From Candidatus Peribacteria bacterium RIFCSPHIGHO2_02_FULL_51_15 (GTDB lineage: Bacteria; Patescibacteriota; Gracilibacteria; Peribacterales; Peribacteraceae): a stretch of DNA of 42,003 nt. A program made the translations under genes and the position numbers. The stretch's first letter is position 1, and each line of letters opens with the position of its first letter. This document shows positions 11,986-37,537 of the stretch, piece by piece. Below the pieces are notes generated by a model, which saw nothing but the letters and a program-made list of their open reading frames with translations, had not been told where the DNA came from and searched no databases. The stretch lies in NCBI GenBank assembly GCA_001788965.1, contig MFXU01000014.1, forward strand, positions 1-42,003, given 5' to 3'.

Positions 11986-12060
11986 TGGAGCCGCTTCGGG
12001 GATTTGAACCCCGGACCTGCTCATTACAAGTGAGCTGCTCTACCACTGAGCTAAAGCGGC
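11986..12060 (-). tRNA. tRNA-Thr (anticodon UGU), CCA encoded
   Basis: The reverse complement folds as a cloverleaf: acceptor GCCGCTT/AAGCGGC, D arm GCTC AGTGGTA GAGC, anticodon arm GCTCA CTTGTAA TGAGC, T arm CGGGG TTCAAAT CCCCG, then T-CCA. Confidence 0.9.
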
Positions 12061-12151
12061 ATGTGGTAACAAAATTAAGTATAGATTTTAACATGGCAGA
12101 AGGACAGAAGTGAGTTTTTTTTCTTCGTAAAATGCGGGTTGCCCCGCATTT

Positions 12152-12585
12152 ACGCCTGTACTTCGTACGCCGGATTCTGTCCGGCTTCGTCCGCCCGAGG
12201 CGGACTACGCCGAGATGACCATCTATCTGGCCCGCGGATATTCTCAGCGGATCTACCCCACTTCGCCTTTCGGCTTCGCGGGGATTAGCGGAGGGGTGGC
12301 CGGAGCGACGGAATCATCGCTTGATCTGACCACCCAAATCCTCCTTGCAGCACCTAGAAGTTTGCCGTGATGCCCCGGATTCCCCGGGGCCAACCCCGCA
12401 CGCACGAGTGCTGCGGGGACGTTTCATATCATCCGCCTGAGGGCGGACTGCTCGTCTCTGTGGCACTTGTCCGCATGCAACTTTACCGGATATATGTTGC
12501 ATGGGTGGGCGTTACCCACTAGGCATTCCATTGCTGTCCGGACGTTCCTCCCCGCGGAAGCGGGGCGGTCATCTAAAGAACAGGA
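12152..12585 (-). ncRNA. rnpB: RNase P RNA, bacterial type A
   Basis: The minus strand reads ...AGAUGACC GCCCCGC UUCC GCGGGG AGGAACGUCCGGACAG (P2, P3, P4 5' strand) and ...GACAGAAUCCGGCGUA (P4 3' strand, bulged U geometry preserved). P1 is CCUGUUCUUU/GAAGUACAGG. A terminator-like hairpin lies at about 12128-12150. Ends are approximate. Confidence 0.85.
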
Positions 12586-12684: not shown

Positions 12685-14931
12685 CTAATTTTTTTTAGTA
12701 GATTCTGTCTTATTCAGCTCAACAGGTACCGACAATTCAAACGTCGTGCCGGTTCCTTCCTTGCTGTGAAATGAAAGCTTTCCGCCGATGCTTTCGGCGG
12801 CGATGTGAGAGATATACAAACCGAGGCCCGAGCCTTCCGCATCTGAAAGGCGGGCATTCGTTCCGCGGAAAAGTTTCTTGAAAATCTCGGGTTGCTGGTT
12901 TTCCGGTATGCCTATCCCGCGGTCCGATATGGAAAACATCACGGTTTTCTGGGGGCGGTTCAGCGCGATAACGGCACTGACCGAAGTGCTTTCCCGGCCG
13001 TATTTTATCGCATTATTCACCAGATTTTCGAGAATCAGAAGAAGCAAGCCCCGATCAGAATAAATTTCAGCCGGATTGGCGCAATGTACTTCAACAGTCA
13101 TTTTTTTTCTTTTCAGTTCCAATTTGAAAGACTCTTTTATCTCACTCAAAAGTTTAGCCACATCGACGGCTTCGGGCTTTAACTGTATTTTTCCCAGTTC
13201 CAGGCGTGAAACGTTCAAAAGCGCGTTGACGAGATGCACCATCCGGGAATTTGAAGCCGTCACCTCCTCGACATATTGCTCCTGCTGCGAATTCAGGGAA
13301 CCGGCGTCTTTTGCAAGCAGCATTTCCAGATACCAACGCATGGAGGAAAGCGGGGTTCTCAGCTGGTGCGAGACCAGGGTAATGAAATCGGATTTCATGT
13401 GGTCGATGCGGCGCTCCTCGGTGATGTCCCGGAAAACAGCGACCGATCCCAGGCACTGACGGCCTTTCAGTATCGGTGTGACCCTGAGATGCAGGGCGCT
13501 TTGGGTGCCGTCGCGGCGAAAAAGCGCGAATTCGGGGTCAGTCAGCGGATTGAAGCGCTGCTTGGTCCGGACAACTTTTAAAATCGGATGCTCGGTGGGG
13601 GGAACTTCCCTGCCGCTTCTGTCGGTGATCTTCAGGATATCGGTTGAGTTTGAGCCCGTTACATTTCCGGAGGACCAGCCGGTGAGAAGCTCGCCGTTTT
13701 TGTTGAGATAAACCGCTTTCCCGTTTCGGCCGCTGACCAGCAGCCCGTAATCGATGCTTTCCAGTATCGCGGCGTCTTCGGCGTGCTGGGCTTGCAGGGC
13801 ACTTGTCCGCTCTCTTACTTTTTCTTCGAGGTGGTCATGCGCCTCGCGTAGCCTGCGAGTGAGGTTAAAAGCCGCCCGGTCTACTATTTCCAATTCATTT
13901 CCGGTGAATATCGAACGCCTGAATTTCCATCTGCGGGTTTCCAGATTGTTCAGTTTACGGGCGAGTTCTTCGAGGGGCGAGACTATATGGCGGGCCAGAA
14001 CGAAAACAGTGAATGAGAGAAGGGTGACCATCATCAAACCGCTTCCCATCAGGTTGGCCGCCAGCCGGAACACGGGTTCCAAAAGCTCGAACCTGTCCAT
14101 CTGAACGATTATCGCCCACTTGATCGAAGGCAAATGCCGGTACGCAGCCAGGACCCTGATGCCGGAGTAATCAACAGTTTCGACCGAACCCTCTTTGCCT
14201 TCCAGGGTTTTCATAAATAATTCCGAGCGGTCGTCGATCTCGGCGAGACGGGTCAGGTTTGGGCCTGCAGGGGTGTTATTTGAGTGCAATAAAACCAAAC
14301 CGCCGGAATCCTCGGCAGCCAGAATGATCTCGGCGGTTTTTCCGAGATAAGTGGTTTCGAGCAGACGGGCGATGAGTATGCCGGGGTCGAAAATCGCGAT
14401 CAGTGTGCCGGTTCTATTGCCGGCGCGATCAAACTGGGGAGTCGCTATCAGATAAGCGGACCAGCCTGTGCTAAAGCTTCGGCTGGCTGGCCAGTCTTTA
14501 TTTTCGAATACCGGGAAAAAAAACGTCCGGGATTCGTGTTTAATTTTTTCCATCACGGTTTCAGGCAAGGGATCGACTTGTGTGTTCCCGGGAGAGAGAC
14601 GGCTTATCTTTCCGGAAGAATTTATCAGCAAAAGTTCTTTGAATCCTATGAGATTCATAACTGACGGGAGCGTAGTTAAAAGTGGATCCCGTCCCAGGAT
14701 CGCCAATTGCTCGCGCTGTCTGGAGATCGTCATTTCAAACAGATACTCTTTCGAGGAAGCCGCGAAATCGAGCTGTGCCGCCGTTCGCATCTTCAGTTCG
14801 CGGCCGGTAAGATAAAAAGTCGCCGCCATTACGGCAAAAACCGTAAAAAGCAGCATCGCGAAAGACTCCAAAAAAAGCGTCGTGCGGATCGAATGAAATT
14901 TCTTCGCCTGCCCTGGCCTATGTGAAGGCAT
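12685..14931 (-). CDS. Sensor histidine kinase (periplasmic Cache-like region, HAMP, PAS, HisKA, HATPase)
   Basis: 748-aa ORF. Two TM segments flank a roughly 240-aa extracytoplasmic region. H-box VSHQLRTPL; N/G boxes NLVNNAIKYG, DRGIGI, GSGLGL. Confidence 0.9.
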   Translation of the reverse strand: MPSHRPGQAKKFHSIRTTLFLESFAMLLFTVFAVMAATFYLTGRELKMRTAAQLDFAASSKEYLFEMTISRQREQLAILGRDPLLTTLPSVMNLIGFKELLLINSSGKISRLSPGNTQVDPLPETVMEKIKHESRTFFFPVFENKDWPASRSFSTGWSAYLIATPQFDRAGNRTGTLIAIFDPGILIARLLETTYLGKTAEIILAAEDSGGLVLLHSNNTPAGPNLTRLAEIDDRSELFMKTLEGKEGSVETVDYSGIRVLAAYRHLPSIKWAIIVQMDRFELLEPVFRLAANLMGSGLMMVTLLSFTVFVLARHIVSPLEELARKLNNLETRRWKFRRSIFTGNELEIVDRAAFNLTRRLREAHDHLEEKVRERTSALQAQHAEDAAILESIDYGLLVSGRNGKAVYLNKNGELLTGWSSGNVTGSNSTDILKITDRSGREVPPTEHPILKVVRTKQRFNPLTDPEFALFRRDGTQSALHLRVTPILKGRQCLGSVAVFRDITEERRIDHMKSDFITLVSHQLRTPLSSMRWYLEMLLAKDAGSLNSQQEQYVEEVTASNSRMVHLVNALLNVSRLELGKIQLKPEAVDVAKLLSEIKESFKLELKRKKMTVEVHCANPAEIYSDRGLLLLILENLVNNAIKYGRESTSVSAVIALNRPQKTVMFSISDRGIGIPENQQPEIFKKLFRGTNARLSDAEGSGLGLYISHIAAESIGGKLSFHSKEGTGTTFELSVPVELNKTESTKKN

Positions 14932-14981
14932 AAATCATTATATTATAGCAGAAAAGTGGAAGCCGGAGAACTTTAAAAAGG

Positions 14982-15181
14982 GTAACTGCTCACTGACCTT
15001 GCAGAAAATACCGCTAACCTTGCCGCCTCACCCCCTGCCCCTCTCCCGCATTCGCGGGCGAGGGGAGCTCCGCTTCACCTCCGAATGAAGTGTAATACGG
15101 ATTCCTCTCTCCCTTTTTGGGAGAGAGGTGGCGCCGCAGCGCCGGAGTGAGGCGATGGCTGCAGAGTCAGTGAGCAGTTAC
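14982..15181. mobile_element. MITE copy A (TIR GTAACTGCTCACTGAC; TSD TAAAAAGG)
   Basis: Perfect 16-bp TIRs at 14982-14997 and 15166-15181. An 8/8 direct repeat TAAAAAGG abuts both ends. The interior is homologous to copies B and C. Confidence 0.85.
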
Positions 15182-15194
15182 TAAAAAGGAAACC

Positions 15195-15260
15195 GAGGAA
15201 TCCGAAGAAACCGACGAAACCGAAGAAAGGCGGCTTTTCCTCGGACTCTTCGGATTCCTC
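15195..15260. repeat. Palindrome with 9-nt-period word arm (GAGGAATCCGAAG ... CTTCGGATTCCTC)
   Basis: Perfect 13-bp inverted repeat at 15195-15207 and 15248-15260. The left arm continues as aaccgaNNN words with period 9. Confidence 0.75.
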
Positions 15261-22649: not shown

Positions 22650-23084
22650 TTAAACAGCCGCTTTTACGCGGACAAGGATTTCGGCGATCGGGGTGTTTGA
22701 TTTCACGAAATAATCGATGGCGCCGAGTGATTTGGCCTTCGCCCGGTCTTCGTCCTGGCCCAGATTGCTCAGGACGATCACCGGAACTTTGATTTTTTCC
22801 TTTTTCATTTCCTCCAGTACCGCGAAGCCGTCCATAACCGGCATGATCAGATCCAGAAGCACGAGGGCAAAGTTCTTTTTTTTGAGTTCGGCCAGAGCGT
22901 CGCTCCCGTTCGTCGCGACTTGTGTCTCGTAACCCTGTCCCTTGAGCTTCATTTCCAACGCATGGGCCAGCGGCCTTTCGTCCTCGACGATCAGTATGAG
23001 TTTGCCGTTCGATTTCGGCTTACCCGCGATGTCCGGTTTTTCCTGAGACTCCGGGGCTGAAACCTTGGTTTGTTTTTGAGCCAT
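22650..23084 (-). CDS. Stand-alone response regulator receiver (CheY-like)
   Basis: REC fold: ILIVEDE, phospho-acceptor context LVLLDLIMPVMDG, VIVLSN, and K in DYFVK. ATG 23084 was chosen because the longer ORF (to 23162) runs into MITE copy B. Confidence 0.85.
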   Translation of the reverse strand: MAQKQTKVSAPESQEKPDIAGKPKSNGKLILIVEDERPLAHALEMKLKGQGYETQVATNGSDALAELKKKNFALVLLDLIMPVMDGFAVLEEMKKEKIKVPVIVLSNLGQDEDRAKAKSLGAIDYFVKSNTPIAEILVRVKAAV

Positions 23085-23135
23085 AAATTCAAGATATTGT
23101 AGCAGAATTATGGAATTTTTACCAGTGACATGCAG

Positions 23136-23339
23136 GAAAGTGCTCACTGACCTTGCGGCCATTCGCCCTCACTCCGGCGCTGCGACGCCACCTCTCTCCC
23201 GATGGGGGAGAGAGGAATCCGTATCACACTTCATTCGGAGGTGAAGCGAAGCTCCCCTCTCCCGAGCCGCAGCGGGAGAGGGGCCGGGGATGAGGCGACA
23301 AGTTTAGCGACACCTCCTACAAGGTCAGTGAGCAGTTAC
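23136..23339. mobile_element. MITE copy B (inverted relative to A and C; TSD ACATGCAG)
   Basis: Right TIR perfect; left TIR GAAAGTGCTCACTGAC has 2 mismatches. 8/8 direct repeat ACATGCAG at 23128-23135 and 23340-23347. The interior is the reverse complement of copies A/C. Confidence 0.85.
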
Positions 23340-23405
23340 ACATGCAGGAAAGTAAGGGAGGTAAGGAAAGGCTTCAATAAACTTCTCCCAACTGATAAAC
23401 TCCCA

Positions 23406-25019
23406 ATGCCAATGCCCCGCTCTTCGTCTTCACCGCATCGACGTGCCCTGATATCGGTATTCGACAAAACCGGCATCGTCGATTTTGCGGCCTCGCTTCA
23501 GGCGGCGGGATTCCAGATCATATCTACCGGAGGAACGCAGCGAGCCCTGGAGGAAGCCGGAATCACGGTATTGAACGTCGAAAAATTAACCCAATTTCCG
23601 GAATGTTTCGGCGGGCGGCTGAAAACCATCCATCCGCTCGTAGCCGGCGGGATTTTGTACAAACGGGATGAAGAGGAGCAGGTCGCGGAGGCAAAAGAGC
23701 TGGGCATCGAGCCCGTAGACGTAGTGGTTGTAAATCTGTATCCCTTTGCCGAAACAGTCGAAAAATCCGGCTTTAAGCCGGCTCCTGGCGCCGCATTGCC
23801 CGAGGAAGTCATCGAGCAGATAGACATCGGCGGACCGATGCTTCTCCGGAGCGCGGCAAAAAATCACCACACCGTCACCGTCATCTGCGATCCGTCGGAC
23901 TACGCCGAAGTTGCCTCTCAAATAAAAGAAAAAGGAGACACTGCCGTCGAATTTCGCAGGGAACTGGCGGCGAAAGTTTTCGCTCACACGTCAGCGTACG
24001 ATTCTTTGATAGGGGAATATCTTTCGGGCGGGAAAACTGCGGGCGTTATGCTGGATAACCGCCGGACATTGAGGTACGGGGAAAATCCCCATCAGACGGG
24101 AGTTTTCTTCGATGTAATGGCACATGTAACGTTGAATCAAGAATCAAGTAATAAGCCAAAAGCCAAAAGCCAAAAGCCAAAAGCCTCTCAGTGGAAGCAA
24201 TTACAAGGCAAAGATCTGAGCTATCTGAATATTCTCGATGCCGATGCCGCCTGGCGGATGGCGATGGATTTTTCGCCGCCCACTGCGGTTTTTGTGAAGC
24301 ATGCCAATCCCTGCGGCATCGCTTCGCATGAAAAAATAGAAGAAGCGTTCCAGCGCGGTTATGACACGGACAGGCTTTCGGCTTTCGGAGTCATCATTGC
24401 CATTAACAGAAATTGTTCTGCTGAAATCGCGAAAAAAATCATCGACCAGAAAATATTCACCGAGGTCATCCTCGCGCCTTCGTTTGAACCCGGCGCCCTG
24501 GAGCTTCTCAGGCAAAAGCCGAACATCCGGGTACTGTACATGGACGGTACGGTTTTTTCCGGCGAGCCGGTTTACCGGTCGGCTTTCGGCGGCATGCTGG
24601 TTCAGGACGAAGATACGAAACAAGTGACGGCCGGGGATTTGGTTTGCGTAACCGAAAAAAAACCGACCCCGAAACAGACAGATGATCTTTTGTTTGCCTG
24701 GAAAGTGGTGAAACATGCCAAGTCGAATGCGATTGTTTTGGCCAAAGATCAGGTGAGCATCGGTATCGGCTGCGGACAGACCAGCCGGGTGGATTCGACG
24801 CACATCGCTCTCAGGCGGGCGGGTGACAGAGTCAAAGGAAGCGCTCTCGCGAGCGACGCATTTTTCCCGTTCCCGGATTCAATCGAGGAAGCGGCCAAGC
24901 ACAGCATCAGCGCCGTGATCCATCCGGGAGGATCGATACGCGACAAAGAGGTTTTCGCGAGAGCCGATGAGCTGGGGCTGGTGATGGTCGTAACTGGTAT
25001 ACGTGGATTCCGACATTAA
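23406..25019 (+). CDS. purH: Bifunctional AICAR transformylase / IMP cyclohydrolase PurH
   Basis: RALISVFDKTGIVDFA...STGGT (MGS-like domain), YGENPHQ, and the AICARFT C-terminus ending GGSIRD...VTGIRGFRH. ATG 23406 was chosen; the ORF-track start 23202 lies inside MITE B. An in-frame heptamer tract lies at 24134-24185. Confidence 0.95.
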   Translation: MPMPRSSSSPHRRALISVFDKTGIVDFAASLQAAGFQIISTGGTQRALEEAGITVLNVEKLTQFPECFGGRLKTIHPLVAGGILYKRDEEEQVAEAKELGIEPVDVVVVNLYPFAETVEKSGFKPAPGAALPEEVIEQIDIGGPMLLRSAAKNHHTVTVICDPSDYAEVASQIKEKGDTAVEFRRELAAKVFAHTSAYDSLIGEYLSGGKTAGVMLDNRRTLRYGENPHQTGVFFDVMAHVTLNQESSNKPKAKSQKPKASQWKQLQGKDLSYLNILDADAAWRMAMDFSPPTAVFVKHANPCGIASHEKIEEAFQRGYDTDRLSAFGVIIAINRNCSAEIAKKIIDQKIFTEVILAPSFEPGALELLRQKPNIRVLYMDGTVFSGEPVYRSAFGGMLVQDEDTKQVTAGDLVCVTEKKPTPKQTDDLLFAWKVVKHAKSNAIVLAKDQVSIGIGCGQTSRVDSTHIALRRAGDRVKGSALASDAFFPFPDSIEEAAKHSISAVIHPGGSIRDKEVFARADELGLVMVVTGIRGFRH

Positions 25020-25607: not shown

Positions 25608-27011
25608 ATGACAAAAAAGCCCATTTTTTCCGGCCTCAGCCGTTCGATGTTCGATCAGGCCAATCCTGCGCCGTACGCCAAGAGAGCGAAGCGGGGGGTG
25701 GACGAGGAGGTGGTGAGGCGGATCAGCGCGGACAAAAACGAGCCGGGATGGATGCTTAAGCACCGGCTTGATTCTTTGAAAGCTTATAACGAAAAGCCGC
25801 TGCCGATGTGGGGGCCGGACCTGAGTCGGCTCGATCTCAATAATATTATTTATTATGCGAGAACAGGTGCTGAGGAAACGGATGACTGGCGCGAGGTTCC
25901 TCCTGAAATTCGTCGGGTCTACGATCGTCTGGGAATCCCCGAAGCCGAACGCAGGTTTTTGGCCGGAGTCGGCGCCCAATACGAAAGCGAGGTGATTTAT
26001 CACCGGCTAAAAAAGGAGTGGAAGAAACTCGGCGTTATTTTTTTGGATTTGGATGTCGCACTCAGGCTCCACCCGGATCTGGTCCGGAAGTACTTTATGA
26101 CGTGCGTTCCGGCAACCGATCACAAATTCGCAGCGCTTCACGGTGCGGTCTGGTCCGGCGGGACTTTTTTATATGTGCCGCCAGGCGTGAAAGTCCGTGA
26201 GCCGCTGCAAGCCTATTTTCGTATGAACGCCAAAAACATGGGTCAGTTCGAACACACGCTGATCATCGCCGACGCAGGCTCCGAAGTGAGTTACATCGAG
26301 GGGTGCTCGGCCCCCAAATACGGCAGTCAGGCGCTTCATGCCGGACTTGTGGAAATTTTCGTCAAGCCCGGAGCCAAAGTCCGTTATTCATCGGTCGAAA
26401 ACTGGAGCCGCGACACTTACAATTTAAATACGAAACGGGCGATAGTCGAGCGCGACGGCACGATGGAGTGGATCGGCGGAAATATGGGATCGGGAACCAC
26501 CATGCTTTATCCCTGCAGCATGCTGGTTGGGGAAGGCGCCCGGTGCGATCACATGGCGCTGGCTTTTGCCAATAAAGACCAATGGCAGGACACCGGCACC
26601 AGAGTCATCCATCTGGCGCCGCATACTTCGAGCAAGGTCGTAAGCAAGTCAATAAGCAAAGAAGGCGGCGTCTGCATTTACCGCGGGCTTCTGAAAATCT
26701 CGCCGGAAGCGCATGACAGTACGGCGAGCGTTGAGTGTGATGCGCTGCTCCTCGATGAAAAAAGCCGGACCGATACGGTCCCCGACATTCAGGTGAAAAA
26801 CAATGACGTGACCGTCGCTCATGAAGCCCGGGTCGGGAAGCTCAGCGAGGAGGATCTCTTTTACCTCATGTCCCGCGGCATTTCCGAAGAAGAGGCCAAA
26901 GCCATGATCGTAAACGGGTTCATCGAGCCGATTGTCCGGATGCTGCCCCTGGAATATGCAGTGGAGATGAATCGACTGATTGAGATGGAAATGGAGGGAT
27001 CGGTGGGGTAA
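25608..27011 (+). CDS. sufB: Fe-S cluster assembly protein SufB
   Basis: 467-aa ORF with typical SufB blocks (GAVWSGGTFLYVPPGV, ...HEARVGKLSEEDLFYLMSRGISEEEAKAMIVNGF). Confidence 0.95.
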   Translation: MTKKPIFSGLSRSMFDQANPAPYAKRAKRGVDEEVVRRISADKNEPGWMLKHRLDSLKAYNEKPLPMWGPDLSRLDLNNIIYYARTGAEETDDWREVPPEIRRVYDRLGIPEAERRFLAGVGAQYESEVIYHRLKKEWKKLGVIFLDLDVALRLHPDLVRKYFMTCVPATDHKFAALHGAVWSGGTFLYVPPGVKVREPLQAYFRMNAKNMGQFEHTLIIADAGSEVSYIEGCSAPKYGSQALHAGLVEIFVKPGAKVRYSSVENWSRDTYNLNTKRAIVERDGTMEWIGGNMGSGTTMLYPCSMLVGEGARCDHMALAFANKDQWQDTGTRVIHLAPHTSSKVVSKSISKEGGVCIYRGLLKISPEAHDSTASVECDALLLDEKSRTDTVPDIQVKNNDVTVAHEARVGKLSEEDLFYLMSRGISEEEAKAMIVNGFIEPIVRMLPLEYAVEMNRLIEMEMEGSVG

Positions 27012-27017
27012 TCGGTT

Positions 27018-27219
27018 GTAACTGCTCACTGACCATGAGGGGTGCTGCCAATCTGGCCGCCTCACCCCCGGCCCCTCTCCCGCTGTGGCCCTGGAGAGGG
27101 GAGCTCCGCTTCACCTCCGAATGAAGTGTGATACGGATTCCTCTCTCCCCCATCGGGAGAGAGGTGGCGCCGCAGCGCCGGAGTGAGGGCGAATGGCCGC
27201 AAGGTCAGTGAGCAGTTAC
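27018..27219. mobile_element. MITE copy C
   Basis: Perfect 16-bp TIRs at both ends, starting 6 nt after the sufB stop. The interior is collinear with copy A. Only GGTT is shared by the two flanks, so there is no clear 8-bp TSD. Confidence 0.8.
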
Positions 27220-27230
27220 GGTTAAGTATG

Positions 27231-27259
27231 TTGTTAATTGAATAGAATTATGCTATAAT
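27231..27259 (+). promoter_or_regulatory. Predicted sigma70-type promoter with extended -10 (TTGTTA-17-TGcTATAAT)
   Basis: TTGTTA at 27231-27236, a 17-nt spacer whose last 3 nt are TGC, and TATAAT at 27254-27259. It sits 12 nt from the MITE C terminus and 29 nt upstream of ATG 27289. Confidence 0.5.
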
Positions 27260-27288: not shown

Positions 27289-28209
27289 ATGCAACTCGAG
27301 CAATTTAGCCCGCAGGAGGATTCAACCTCTAGGTGGCCAGATCCGGAACAGAAGATGGCGAAGAAGGATCTCGAAGATCTGAGAACAAAAATCGCTGAGC
27401 GTCCGGAGATGTCACTGCCGCAGTTTCTGCGCGGGAGCAAAGATCTCTTTCAGAAACGTCAATACAGTATTTGCAACCGACTCAATACATTGACGAAAAA
27501 GAGAGAAAAGCCCGGATGGACAAAGCGGGAAATCGCAAAATACGAAAATCTTACGAATGTTCTCAGCACCATAGAAGACGATGCCAGGAGAATTGAGAGC
27601 GACAAAGAGGAGAACAAAGAGGATGAGGGAGTGGAGTGGTTCACGGATAGTATGAATCTACTGCGCAAAGCGGAGAGGCTCATTGCCGATCTGGAAAAAG
27701 TGATCCACGCGGAGGAGAAGGACAAGGAAGGAGAAACGTCCTGGGTCACCTTTGAGCAGGAGCAGCGCTCTCTCTGGATGCAGTCGATGTTGACTTATGG
27801 GTTACCGACCGATCTCCTCAAAGACGGAAAGAATCCGGAGATCCAGACGCTCGCCGTGCCGGACAACGTCACCGTCACGACCATCGGAGGCGTGGATTTT
27901 CAGACCGTTGCTACGGAGGAGGAGTATAAGATTAAAGATCCAGTAAAGGATAAAAGGACGGATAGAGACCTGACGGCATTCGGCGAATATGCGCGCAAAA
28001 TCACGCAGTTCCGCAAGCTTATCCATCTCAAAATCCCGGAAGGTCAGACTCCGGTACTGAAGTTCGAGTGGGCGGACGCGTCGGGGCAACAAATGGAATG
28101 CACGGTTACCGGACGGCAGCGGGAGAATAAGAGTTGGATCTTCCAAATGGCTCAAGCCGGAACAGAAGATGGAGGGGGCAGGCGAGGGCGGAGAGGCTGG
28201 TTCCGCTGA
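27289..28209 (+). CDS. Orphan hypothetical protein (306 aa) inserted between sufB and sufD
   Basis: Long ORF with a charged, coiled-coil-like N-terminal half and a beta-rich C-terminal half. I recognise no family. Alternative start ATG 27355. Confidence 0.5.
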   Translation: MQLEQFSPQEDSTSRWPDPEQKMAKKDLEDLRTKIAERPEMSLPQFLRGSKDLFQKRQYSICNRLNTLTKKREKPGWTKREIAKYENLTNVLSTIEDDARRIESDKEENKEDEGVEWFTDSMNLLRKAERLIADLEKVIHAEEKDKEGETSWVTFEQEQRSLWMQSMLTYGLPTDLLKDGKNPEIQTLAVPDNVTVTTIGGVDFQTVATEEEYKIKDPVKDKRTDRDLTAFGEYARKITQFRKLIHLKIPEGQTPVLKFEWADASGQQMECTVTGRQRENKSWIFQMAQAGTEDGGGRRGRRGWFR

Positions 28210-29704: not shown

Positions 29705-31257
<1,553 letters not shown>

Positions 31258-37212: not shown

Positions 37213-37366
37213 GGTTCTTTCTCCTAACCATAAATTTACAAGGCACCGATGCTTTAAAGGAGCGTTGCTACAAGCCTCGCTCATTTTTGTCCGGACTAAG
37301 CCATCAGCGCCTGTAACAATCAGAAGATATAATAATATAACTCAAGAAAAGTCAATAGAAATTAAG

Positions 37367-37537
37367 GTAACTGCTCACTGAGTCTGAAATAAACTTGTGA
37401 GAAACAACCAGCAGCTCTTTGCGGAATAAATTCCGCTTTCTCGTGTTTAGTTAACCGCCGATTTAAATCGGCGGTTAACTAAGGGGAAAATAGCGAATTT
37501 ATTCGCCCGATAATCCGCAGCGTCAGTGAGCAGTTAC
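37367..37537. mobile_element. MITE copy D (same TIRs, unrelated interior)
   Basis: GTAACTGCTCACTGA ... TCAGTGAGCAGTTAC. Flanks AAATTAAG / AAATTAAT (7/8). The interior holds three perfect palindromes, including the 32-bp AGTTAACCGCCGATTTAAATCGGCGGTTAACT. Confidence 0.8.

Follow-up and report, generated by a model that had tools for sequence, protein, structure and literature searches.

The window, by which we mean the whole stretch of 42,003 nucleotides that was analysed, carries genes for a sensor kinase, a receiver-only response regulator that heads a PilB/T2SSE and T2SSF operon, PurH, SufB and a surface-protein-like product, as well as a complete 16S rRNA gene (29705-31257, minus strand). 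The 16-nt terminal inverted repeat (TIR) GTAACTGCTCACTGAC occurs eight times in the window when up to three mismatches are allowed (0.11 expected), and these eight occurrences delimit four elements, A to D.

Inverted-repeat elements in the window

Copy A (14982-15181, 200 bp) has perfect 16-nt TIRs and is flanked by the target-site duplication (TSD) TAAAAAGG at 14974-14981 and 15182-15189; an identical sequence is found at 1614-1813 of locus L117. Directly at the promoter-distal flank of copy A lies a 9-nt tandem repeat, GAAACCGAA (4.4 copies, 15189-15228), and a similar array, CCGAAGAAA, adjoins a MITE at 607-670 of L117. Copy B (23136-23339, 204 bp) is inverted relative to A and C, and its TSD is ACATGCAG (23128-23135 and 23340-23347). 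The promoter-proximal TIR end of copy B is mutated (23136-23140), with GAAAG replacing GTAAC. Because this altered end is present in every strain contig sampled (L111-L115), copy B is probably immobilised and fixed. Its interior is GC-rich and structured, folding very strongly (z = -7.4). Two mechanical ORFs run into copy B, one from the response regulator side (22650-23162, minus strand) and one from the PurH side (23202-25019, plus strand). The actual starts lie at 23084 and at ~23404-23410, respectively, and gene callers could assign false N-terminal extensions here. A closer inspection of L111 (2700-3000, compared with 23136-23400 of the window) revealed the same response regulator gene, promoter and MITE, followed past the distal TIR by wholly different DNA and no TSD. 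Either two MITE copies have recombined here or the contig was misjoined at the repeat; the latter can happen in metagenome assemblies, of which L111 may be an example.

Copy C (27018-27219, 202 bp) begins 6 nt past the sufB stop codon and has no intact TSD, its flanks AATCGGTT and GGTTAAGT (27010-27227) containing no 8-bp duplication and having GGTT alone in common. This could be a 4-bp coincidence, the result of decay, or the mark of a recombinant between two copies. Of the 23 contigs with the downstream ORF, the 10 listed all have copy C, which is fixed among them. Copy D (37367-37537, 171 bp) has the TIRs of A to C around an unrelated interior, and its flanking octamers, AAATTAAG and AAATTAAT, agree at 7/8 positions. 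The interior is common to A, B (inverted) and C, while that of D is of the same family as the element in L146. MITE-interior fragments also occur alone, since CCTCACTCCGGCGCTGAGGCGCCAC, which is typical of the A/B/C interior, is found at 5250-5312 of L064 outside any TIR pair, where it adjoins a full-length insertion sequence (IS). The first-pass annotation had stated that 8-bp duplications abut the TIRs; this is perfectly so at A and B and holds for 7/8 positions at D, whilst at C the duplication is absent.

All four copies are short (171-204 bp) and non-coding, the ORFs that cross them being mechanical and without homology. They carry the TIRs of autonomous elements, are present in multiple copies in related assemblies and, in the case of A, B and D, have a TSD, which C lacks. 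Moreover, they are polymorphic for presence and absence, as the region upstream of the kinase is occupied in some species and empty in others.

Autonomous relatives of the window elements

Representative genomes and metagenomes were scanned for the exact TIR. Besides chance 16-mer matches, some of which fall in a conserved Enterobacterales gene, among others, many loci were found in Peribacteria, Parcubacteria, Nomurabacteria and other Patescibacteria. The TIR of the window copies also delimits elements of 1.5-1.8 kb with one ORF each, encoding proteins of 483-507 aa. The element proteins match DDE_Tnp_IS66 (PF03050; E = 1.9e-32 for L064, 5.5e-38 for L080, 8.7e-32 for P0045 and 3.2e-32 for P0083) and the NCBIfam model transpos_IS66 (NF033517; 188.9 and 211.3 bits, cut-off 180). 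They consist of an N-terminal coiled coil, zf-IS66 and the DDE domain; permissive Pfam scans returned no further domain, and the Mutator, IS256 and ISLre2 Pfam families gave no match to the transposases even at E = 5. The ends are also those of the IS66 family, GTAACTGCTCACTGAC starting with 5'-GTAA and the TSDs being 8 bp long. Between the TIRs of L064 and L080 there is a single long ORF and none of the tnpA/tnpB accessory ORFs of canonical IS66 elements (tnpA-tnpB-tnpC), and the elements therefore belong to the single-ORF ISBst12-like group. Since the same TIR delimits these IS66-family insertion sequences in CPR bacteria, the window repeats are non-autonomous MITE derivatives of a single-ORF, ISBst12-like IS66-family IS, a lineage that is widespread in CPR (Patescibacteria) bacteria.

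The TSD matches at 7 or 8 of 8 positions in 34 of 55 complete elements; it is lacking in copy C and in several further copies. A tblastn search against plasmids for IS66 elements outside CPR returned haloarchaeal and Alteromonas matches alone, which at 23-27% identity are too distant. In L245, L247 and L248 the IS66-type element has an ISL3-family transposase gene as its direct neighbour, which suggests that these small genomes contain IS-rich patches.

Predicted promoters beside the window elements

The first-pass annotation had proposed that three of the four copies are followed outward by TGCTAYAAT, exactly 31 nt beyond the terminus. All of its coordinates were verified in the window sequence, and the arrangement was confirmed at A (14950-14942, minus strand), B (23104-23096, minus strand) and C (27251-27259, plus strand), where the predicted promoters read outward toward the start codons at 14931, 23084 and 27289. 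TGCTAYAAT occurs four times in the window (0.26 expected), and the chance of finding it at this exact offset from three of eight termini is roughly estimated at ~6e-12. The fourth match, TGCTACAAT at 30002-30010, was rejected as a promoter, being the conserved TGCTACAATGG stretch internal to the 16S rRNA gene. Every TGCTAYAAT of the window outside the rRNA gene is therefore MITE-adjacent.

The predicted sensor kinase promoter (14942-14970, minus strand, ATG at 14931) consists of a -35-like TTCTCC (14970-14965), TGC (14950-14948) and TATAAT (14947-14942), which occupy nt 12-17 and 32-40 from the copy A terminus. That of the response regulator (23096-23124, minus strand, ATG at 23084) consists of TGGTAA (23124-23119), TGC (23104-23102) and TACAAT (23101-23096). 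Both are of the extended -10 type, with -35 matches of 3/6. The predicted promoter of ORF 27289-28209, a protein with no Pfam match, lies at 27231-27259 on the plus strand, where TTGTTA (27231-27236) is separated by a 17-nt spacer from TATAAT, itself preceded by TGC (27251-27259). A strict -35/-10 scan of the window sites calls this promoter alone (10/12 matches plus TG) and calls nothing at copy D. The putative promoter at copy D (37327-37355, minus strand) faces a surface-protein-like gene (ATG at 37284, 871 aa); TTGACT is present at 37355-37350, nt 12-17 from the terminus as had been annotated, and the -10 at 17-nt spacing, TTATAT (37332-37327), is weak (3/6). The same type of promoter also occurs without an element: the extended -10 TGTTAAAAT (12093-12085) lies just upstream of tRNA-Thr (11986-12060) and after a hairpin, in a minus-strand stretch (11986-12584) that also holds the RNase P RNA gene (12151-12584).

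Promoter register across pooled termini

The first-pass annotation had suggested enumerating TIR copies beyond the window, and a sharp preferred offset to promoters was indeed found in a pool of 214 non-redundant terminus flanks from genomes and metagenomes. Chance TIR matches and promoter-distal ends were kept in this pool, and the enrichment figures are therefore conservative. Numbered from the first host base past the TIR, the duplication occupies nt 1-8, the -35 nt 12-17, TRTGn nt 30-34 and the -10 nt 35-40, with the expected +1 at ~nt 47. As the -35 starts at nt 12, the TSD covers about -46 to -39. The terminus is thus at ~-47/-46 and the TIR is centred near -55, exactly the geometry given earlier.

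In a composite test, an outward sigma70-type promoter was found in register 12 at 48/214 termini, whilst the other registers average 2.4 (Poisson 2e-44). Taken singly, TTGACA with at least 5/6 matches starts at nt 12 in 23 cases, and at nt 11 or nt 13 in none (background ~0.9); TGnTAnnnT starts at nt 32 in 25 cases (background ~0.3), and TATAAT with at least 5/6 matches at nt 35 in 29 (background ~1.7). Inward-reading promoters were not enriched among the 214 termini. In the target logo, TTG occupies nt 12-14, TRTGn nt 30-34 and TAnAAT nt 35-40, and neither the TSD nor nt 9-11 is conserved. Where the spacer is 17 nt (22 targets), nt 12 is always T and nt 14 often G; in targets with a 16-nt spacer, the -35 remains at nt 12 and it is the -10 that shifts. 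The 48 in-register targets comprise 18 with an extended -10 alone, 20 with a -35 alone and 10 with both, an either/or pattern typical of sigma70 recognition. From their sequences, the target promoters are predicted to be sigma70-type, with either -35 and -10 boxes separated by 16-18 nt or an extended -10.

Of the 55 complete elements, 27 pass a strict promoter test on at least one side, three of them on both, and about half fail on both. Two of the three double-sided cases, L151 and L164, have the element between divergent promoters whose -35 boxes would have been 14 bp apart before insertion. Many elements that fail the strict test have relaxed promoter matches or shifts of 1-3 nt; L101, L144 and L282 have no recognisable promoter beside the element, and overall roughly a third to a half of elements are without a clear in-register promoter. 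Start codons are often found at nt 47-58 from the terminus, three of them at nt 47, which is the predicted +1. This placement is in keeping with the predicted promoters and suggests that leaderless or near-leaderless mRNAs are frequent. A recurring form of Peribacteria promoter, TGGCAAAAACC-N9-TTTTCTGCTAAAAT, was observed in L151, L170/L202, L221 and L279. The -10 lies between short inverted repeats in L151 and L221 (CTCAAT...ATTGAG and CTGATA...AATCAG), with seemingly compensatory changes.

The register is not confined to one kind of element. It was found beside full-length copies that represent three transposase clusters, among them a variant-TIR IS (P0045, TIR GTAATTCGTCACTGAC), with the promoter beyond one element end or the other, and also beside L283, whose TIR is GTAACCGCTCACTACC and whose transposase is only 48% identical. 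It is thus common to full-length ISs, to MITEs with unrelated interiors and to both orientations. A fixed orientation of the transposase gene with respect to the promoter was considered and rejected, the promoter being on the 3'-end side in L064, L080 and L147 and on the 5'-end side in L157, L174 and three P0083 copies.

Moreover, a target can be used more than once. In L256 the order is promoter, ATCGCCAT, IS, ATCGCCAT, MITE, ATCGCCAT, that is, three copies of one TSD, and one 8-bp target has been used twice. Four junctions in the 214-terminus pool are of this kind, with exactly 8 nt between neighbouring termini. Such re-use implies that the determinants of targeting lie on the promoter side only. 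A different arrangement is seen at 2571-2946 of L130, where two TIR-bounded units of ~185 bp lie 8 bp apart (TAGTCATT) and the pair is flanked on both sides by ATAAGTAC; unlike the triple-TSD array of L256, it is nested or composite.

Occupied and empty orthologous sites

Empty sites in relatives, another check that had been proposed, were found at the kinase promoter. Of the five species compared, three have a MITE at this promoter (the window, L274 and L276) and two, represented by L279 and L280, have none. The TSDs of the occupied sites differ, being CCTTTTTA in the window, GTTTCCCG beside a 70%-identical orthologue, where the interior is also different, and TCTTTTCC beside a 64% orthologue; at least two interiors are involved across the three species. 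The empty sites, which belong to 58% and 52% kinase orthologues, retain TGCTAAAAT or TGCTAGAAT, followed by 11 nt and the ATG. The extended -10 and its spacing to the ATG are therefore conserved in 5/5 species, with or without a MITE. Retention of the promoter at the empty orthologous sites indicates that the kinase promoter is ancestral host DNA and the MITE an insertion.

For the window's own species, exact-protein look-ups of the kinase, the response regulator and ORF 27289 returned no empty allele: each contig recovered either has the MITE in place or ends within it. L278, whose gene table suggested an empty kinase site, was rejected, as the contig begins inside the MITE. An all-against-all search for empty sites among the fetched loci gave two weak candidates only, L109 and L222.

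Discussion

We conclude, with a probability of about 0.85, that ISBst12-like IS66 elements target a fixed site, with 11 nt between the element terminus and the -35 of a sigma70-type promoter. The first-pass annotation had offered insertion targeted to about -47 of promoters as one of two alternatives, and the sharp register, its occurrence with both ISs and MITEs and in both orientations, and the tandem re-use of a target all support it. The choice of site is independent of the target (TSD) sequence and of the orientation of the element. In mechanistic terms, the transposase makes an 8-bp staggered cut whose promoter-side edge falls 3 bp upstream of the -35 hexamer, and the inserted element replaces all DNA upstream of -46. 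The 31 nt to TGCTAYAAT are then the footprint of target-site choice, and the promoters are host DNA older than the insertion. The likely pay-off is that the elements land safely, outside coding sequence, in genomes that are very compact.

How the site is sensed is a separate matter. The transposition complex may dock on promoter-bound RNA polymerase holoenzyme, through sigma region 4 or the alpha C-terminal domain, and read no DNA motif itself. We infer such docking because the targets reproduce the full sigma70 logic, i.e. a -35 or an extended -10, a flexible spacer and anchoring on the -35, and we favour it by a small degree. The fuller proposition, that an IS66-family transposase independently evolved tethering to promoter-bound RNA polymerase holoenzyme and integrates precisely at -46/-39, we regard as evenly balanced. 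The main rival to docking retains targeted insertion with another sensor: the transposase or its multimer would read promoter DNA directly, for instance the -35 TTG by a helix-turn-helix or zinc finger, without RNA polymerase. In favour of this reading are the invariant T at nt 12 (22 targets of 17-nt spacing), the frequent G at nt 14, the anchoring of the register on the -35 position, and the presence of a zf-IS66-like zinc finger and a coiled coil in the transposases. However, 18 of the 48 in-register targets have fewer than 4/6 matches to the -35 and are recognisable by the extended -10, ~20 nt farther, alone. Moreover, the conserved positions match the sigma70 logo in its entirety, with TRTGn and a spacer that varies between 16 and 18 nt, which a single transposase footprint is unlikely to mimic. 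Direct read-out is thus a tentative alternative that we hold to be rather unlikely.

Other explanations dispense with targeting. The second alternative of the first-pass annotation was that retained copies form a shared upstream module; the TIR near -55 would function like an activator-binding site or UP element, or the interior would be an insulator or terminator, and selection would make the register. The TIR does span about -47 to -62, the interior folds very strongly (z = -7.4), and copy B, with its mutated end, is fixed in all sampled strains. Yet the register is common to unrelated interiors, full-length ISs and both orientations, the same 8 bp were used twice in L256, the kinase promoter is conserved without a MITE in two species, and selection on random insertions cannot yield 23 cases at nt 12 and 0 at nt 11 or 13. 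Because of the tandem re-use and the conservation of the promoter with and without a MITE, we attribute the register to target-site choice and not to a MITE-borne module, which as its cause is unsupported and improbable. Likewise, for the suggestion that the four window genes share one module, we found no evidence linking them into one regulon. Still less probable is that insertion is random and purifying selection has left copies just upstream of promoters. CPR genomes are gene-dense and most retained copies are intergenic, as this would require, but it predicts a lower bound on distance with a tail and not a single-nucleotide peak, other intergenic positions would be tolerated too, and a re-used identical 8-bp target needs targeting at the nucleotide level. 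Lastly, the TGCTAYAATAT string common to three window copies might be taken for an outward-facing promoter borne by the element, or for coincidence. Against the former, the TSDs abut the TIRs, the flanks from terminus to -10 are unrelated in sequence and the empty orthologous sites carry the promoter; against the latter, 0.26 motifs are expected per window and the pooled Poisson P is 2e-44, which leaves both with a negligible likelihood. Positional sharpness, the re-used target and the empty sites together exclude selection alone, an element-borne promoter and chance.

Targeted insertion is compatible with secondary effects of the MITEs on expression, which could arise through the loss of DNA upstream of -46 or through the structured GC-rich interior, and MITE copies may additionally insulate adjacent promoters.

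Hardly any promoters have been mapped in CPR bacteria, which are uncultivated, and these insertions indicate promoter positions to the nucleotide in many lineages. If tethering to RNA polymerase is true, each copy would serve as a natural marker that locates a functional promoter of an uncultivated CPR bacterium to the nucleotide, often that of a leaderless transcript, and the elements would provide a second, unrelated bacterial counterpart of Ty3-like targeting. For annotation, these MITEs break assemblies and produce chimeric joins and false N-terminal extensions (e.g. ORFs 22650-23162 and 23202-25019). For engineering, there could also be interest in a transposase that is compact, consists of one protein and inserts immediately upstream of promoters while leaving genes intact.

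Yeast Ty3 and Ty1 and Tn7 TnsD at attTn7 are familiar examples of elements that integrate a set distance away from a protein landmark on the DNA, in a safe site beside genes. The likeness would be one of analogy, as their enzymes are eukaryotic or unrelated and their landmarks are Pol III factors or the glmS end. In E. coli, IS1 and IS5 upstream of the bgl, glpFK and fucAO promoters affect transcription (PMC11043490, PMC11894529). In contrast to the elements described here, those are selected activating events at particular loci and loose positions, with no genome-wide single-nucleotide register.

Within IS66, ISBst12 and ISDge4 of the ISBst12 group resemble our elements in that each has just one ORF, for a transposase of ~450-510 aa, together with 8-bp direct repeats (PMC12898284). 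ISDge4 of Deinococcus geothermalis has the TIR GTAACTGCTCAGCA and an 8-bp direct repeat (PMC12898284), and the first 11 nt of this TIR are identical to those of the TIR found here. Promoter targeting, in contrast, is not reported for this group. ISDge4 was recovered from within a coding region in a selection for gene loss (PMC12898284), so that the specificity for promoters either has exceptions or does not extend to the whole family. In a large survey, IS66 was enriched where gene ends converge and not upstream of genes (PMC9208149). Our literature search yielded no description of IS66 or ISBst12 elements that target promoters.

The closest parallel is offered by TnGBS, ISLre2 and the ISKra4 group, which insert at a fixed distance upstream of sigmaA promoters, 15-17 (13-17) bp from the -35 (PMC3942029). 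These have Mutator-like DDE transposases and insert in both orientations when their inverted repeats are symmetric, and an interaction with the RNA polymerase initiation complex was proposed for them by analogy with Ty3 (PMC3942029). IS66 is absent from the p-MULT families named in that study (PMC3942029). The two systems are alike in being DDE transposons that insert at a fixed distance from a sigmaA/sigma70 -35, with no consensus in the duplicated target and in both orientations. They differ in that the transposase here is DDE_Tnp_IS66 and not Mutator-like, in that 11 nt separate the terminus from the -35 as against 15-17 there, and in that the hosts are CPR bacteria, whereas theirs are mainly Firmicutes, and many of the copies here are MITEs. 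Promoter-targeted transposition in bacteria had thus been known from one superfamily, with a mechanism that is still unproven; we found fixed-distance targeting described solely for Mutator-like TnGBS, ISLre2 and ISKra4, and the IS66 case appears to be new. With its ruler of 11 as against 15-17 bp, it offers a convergent second system for learning what is sensed at promoters.
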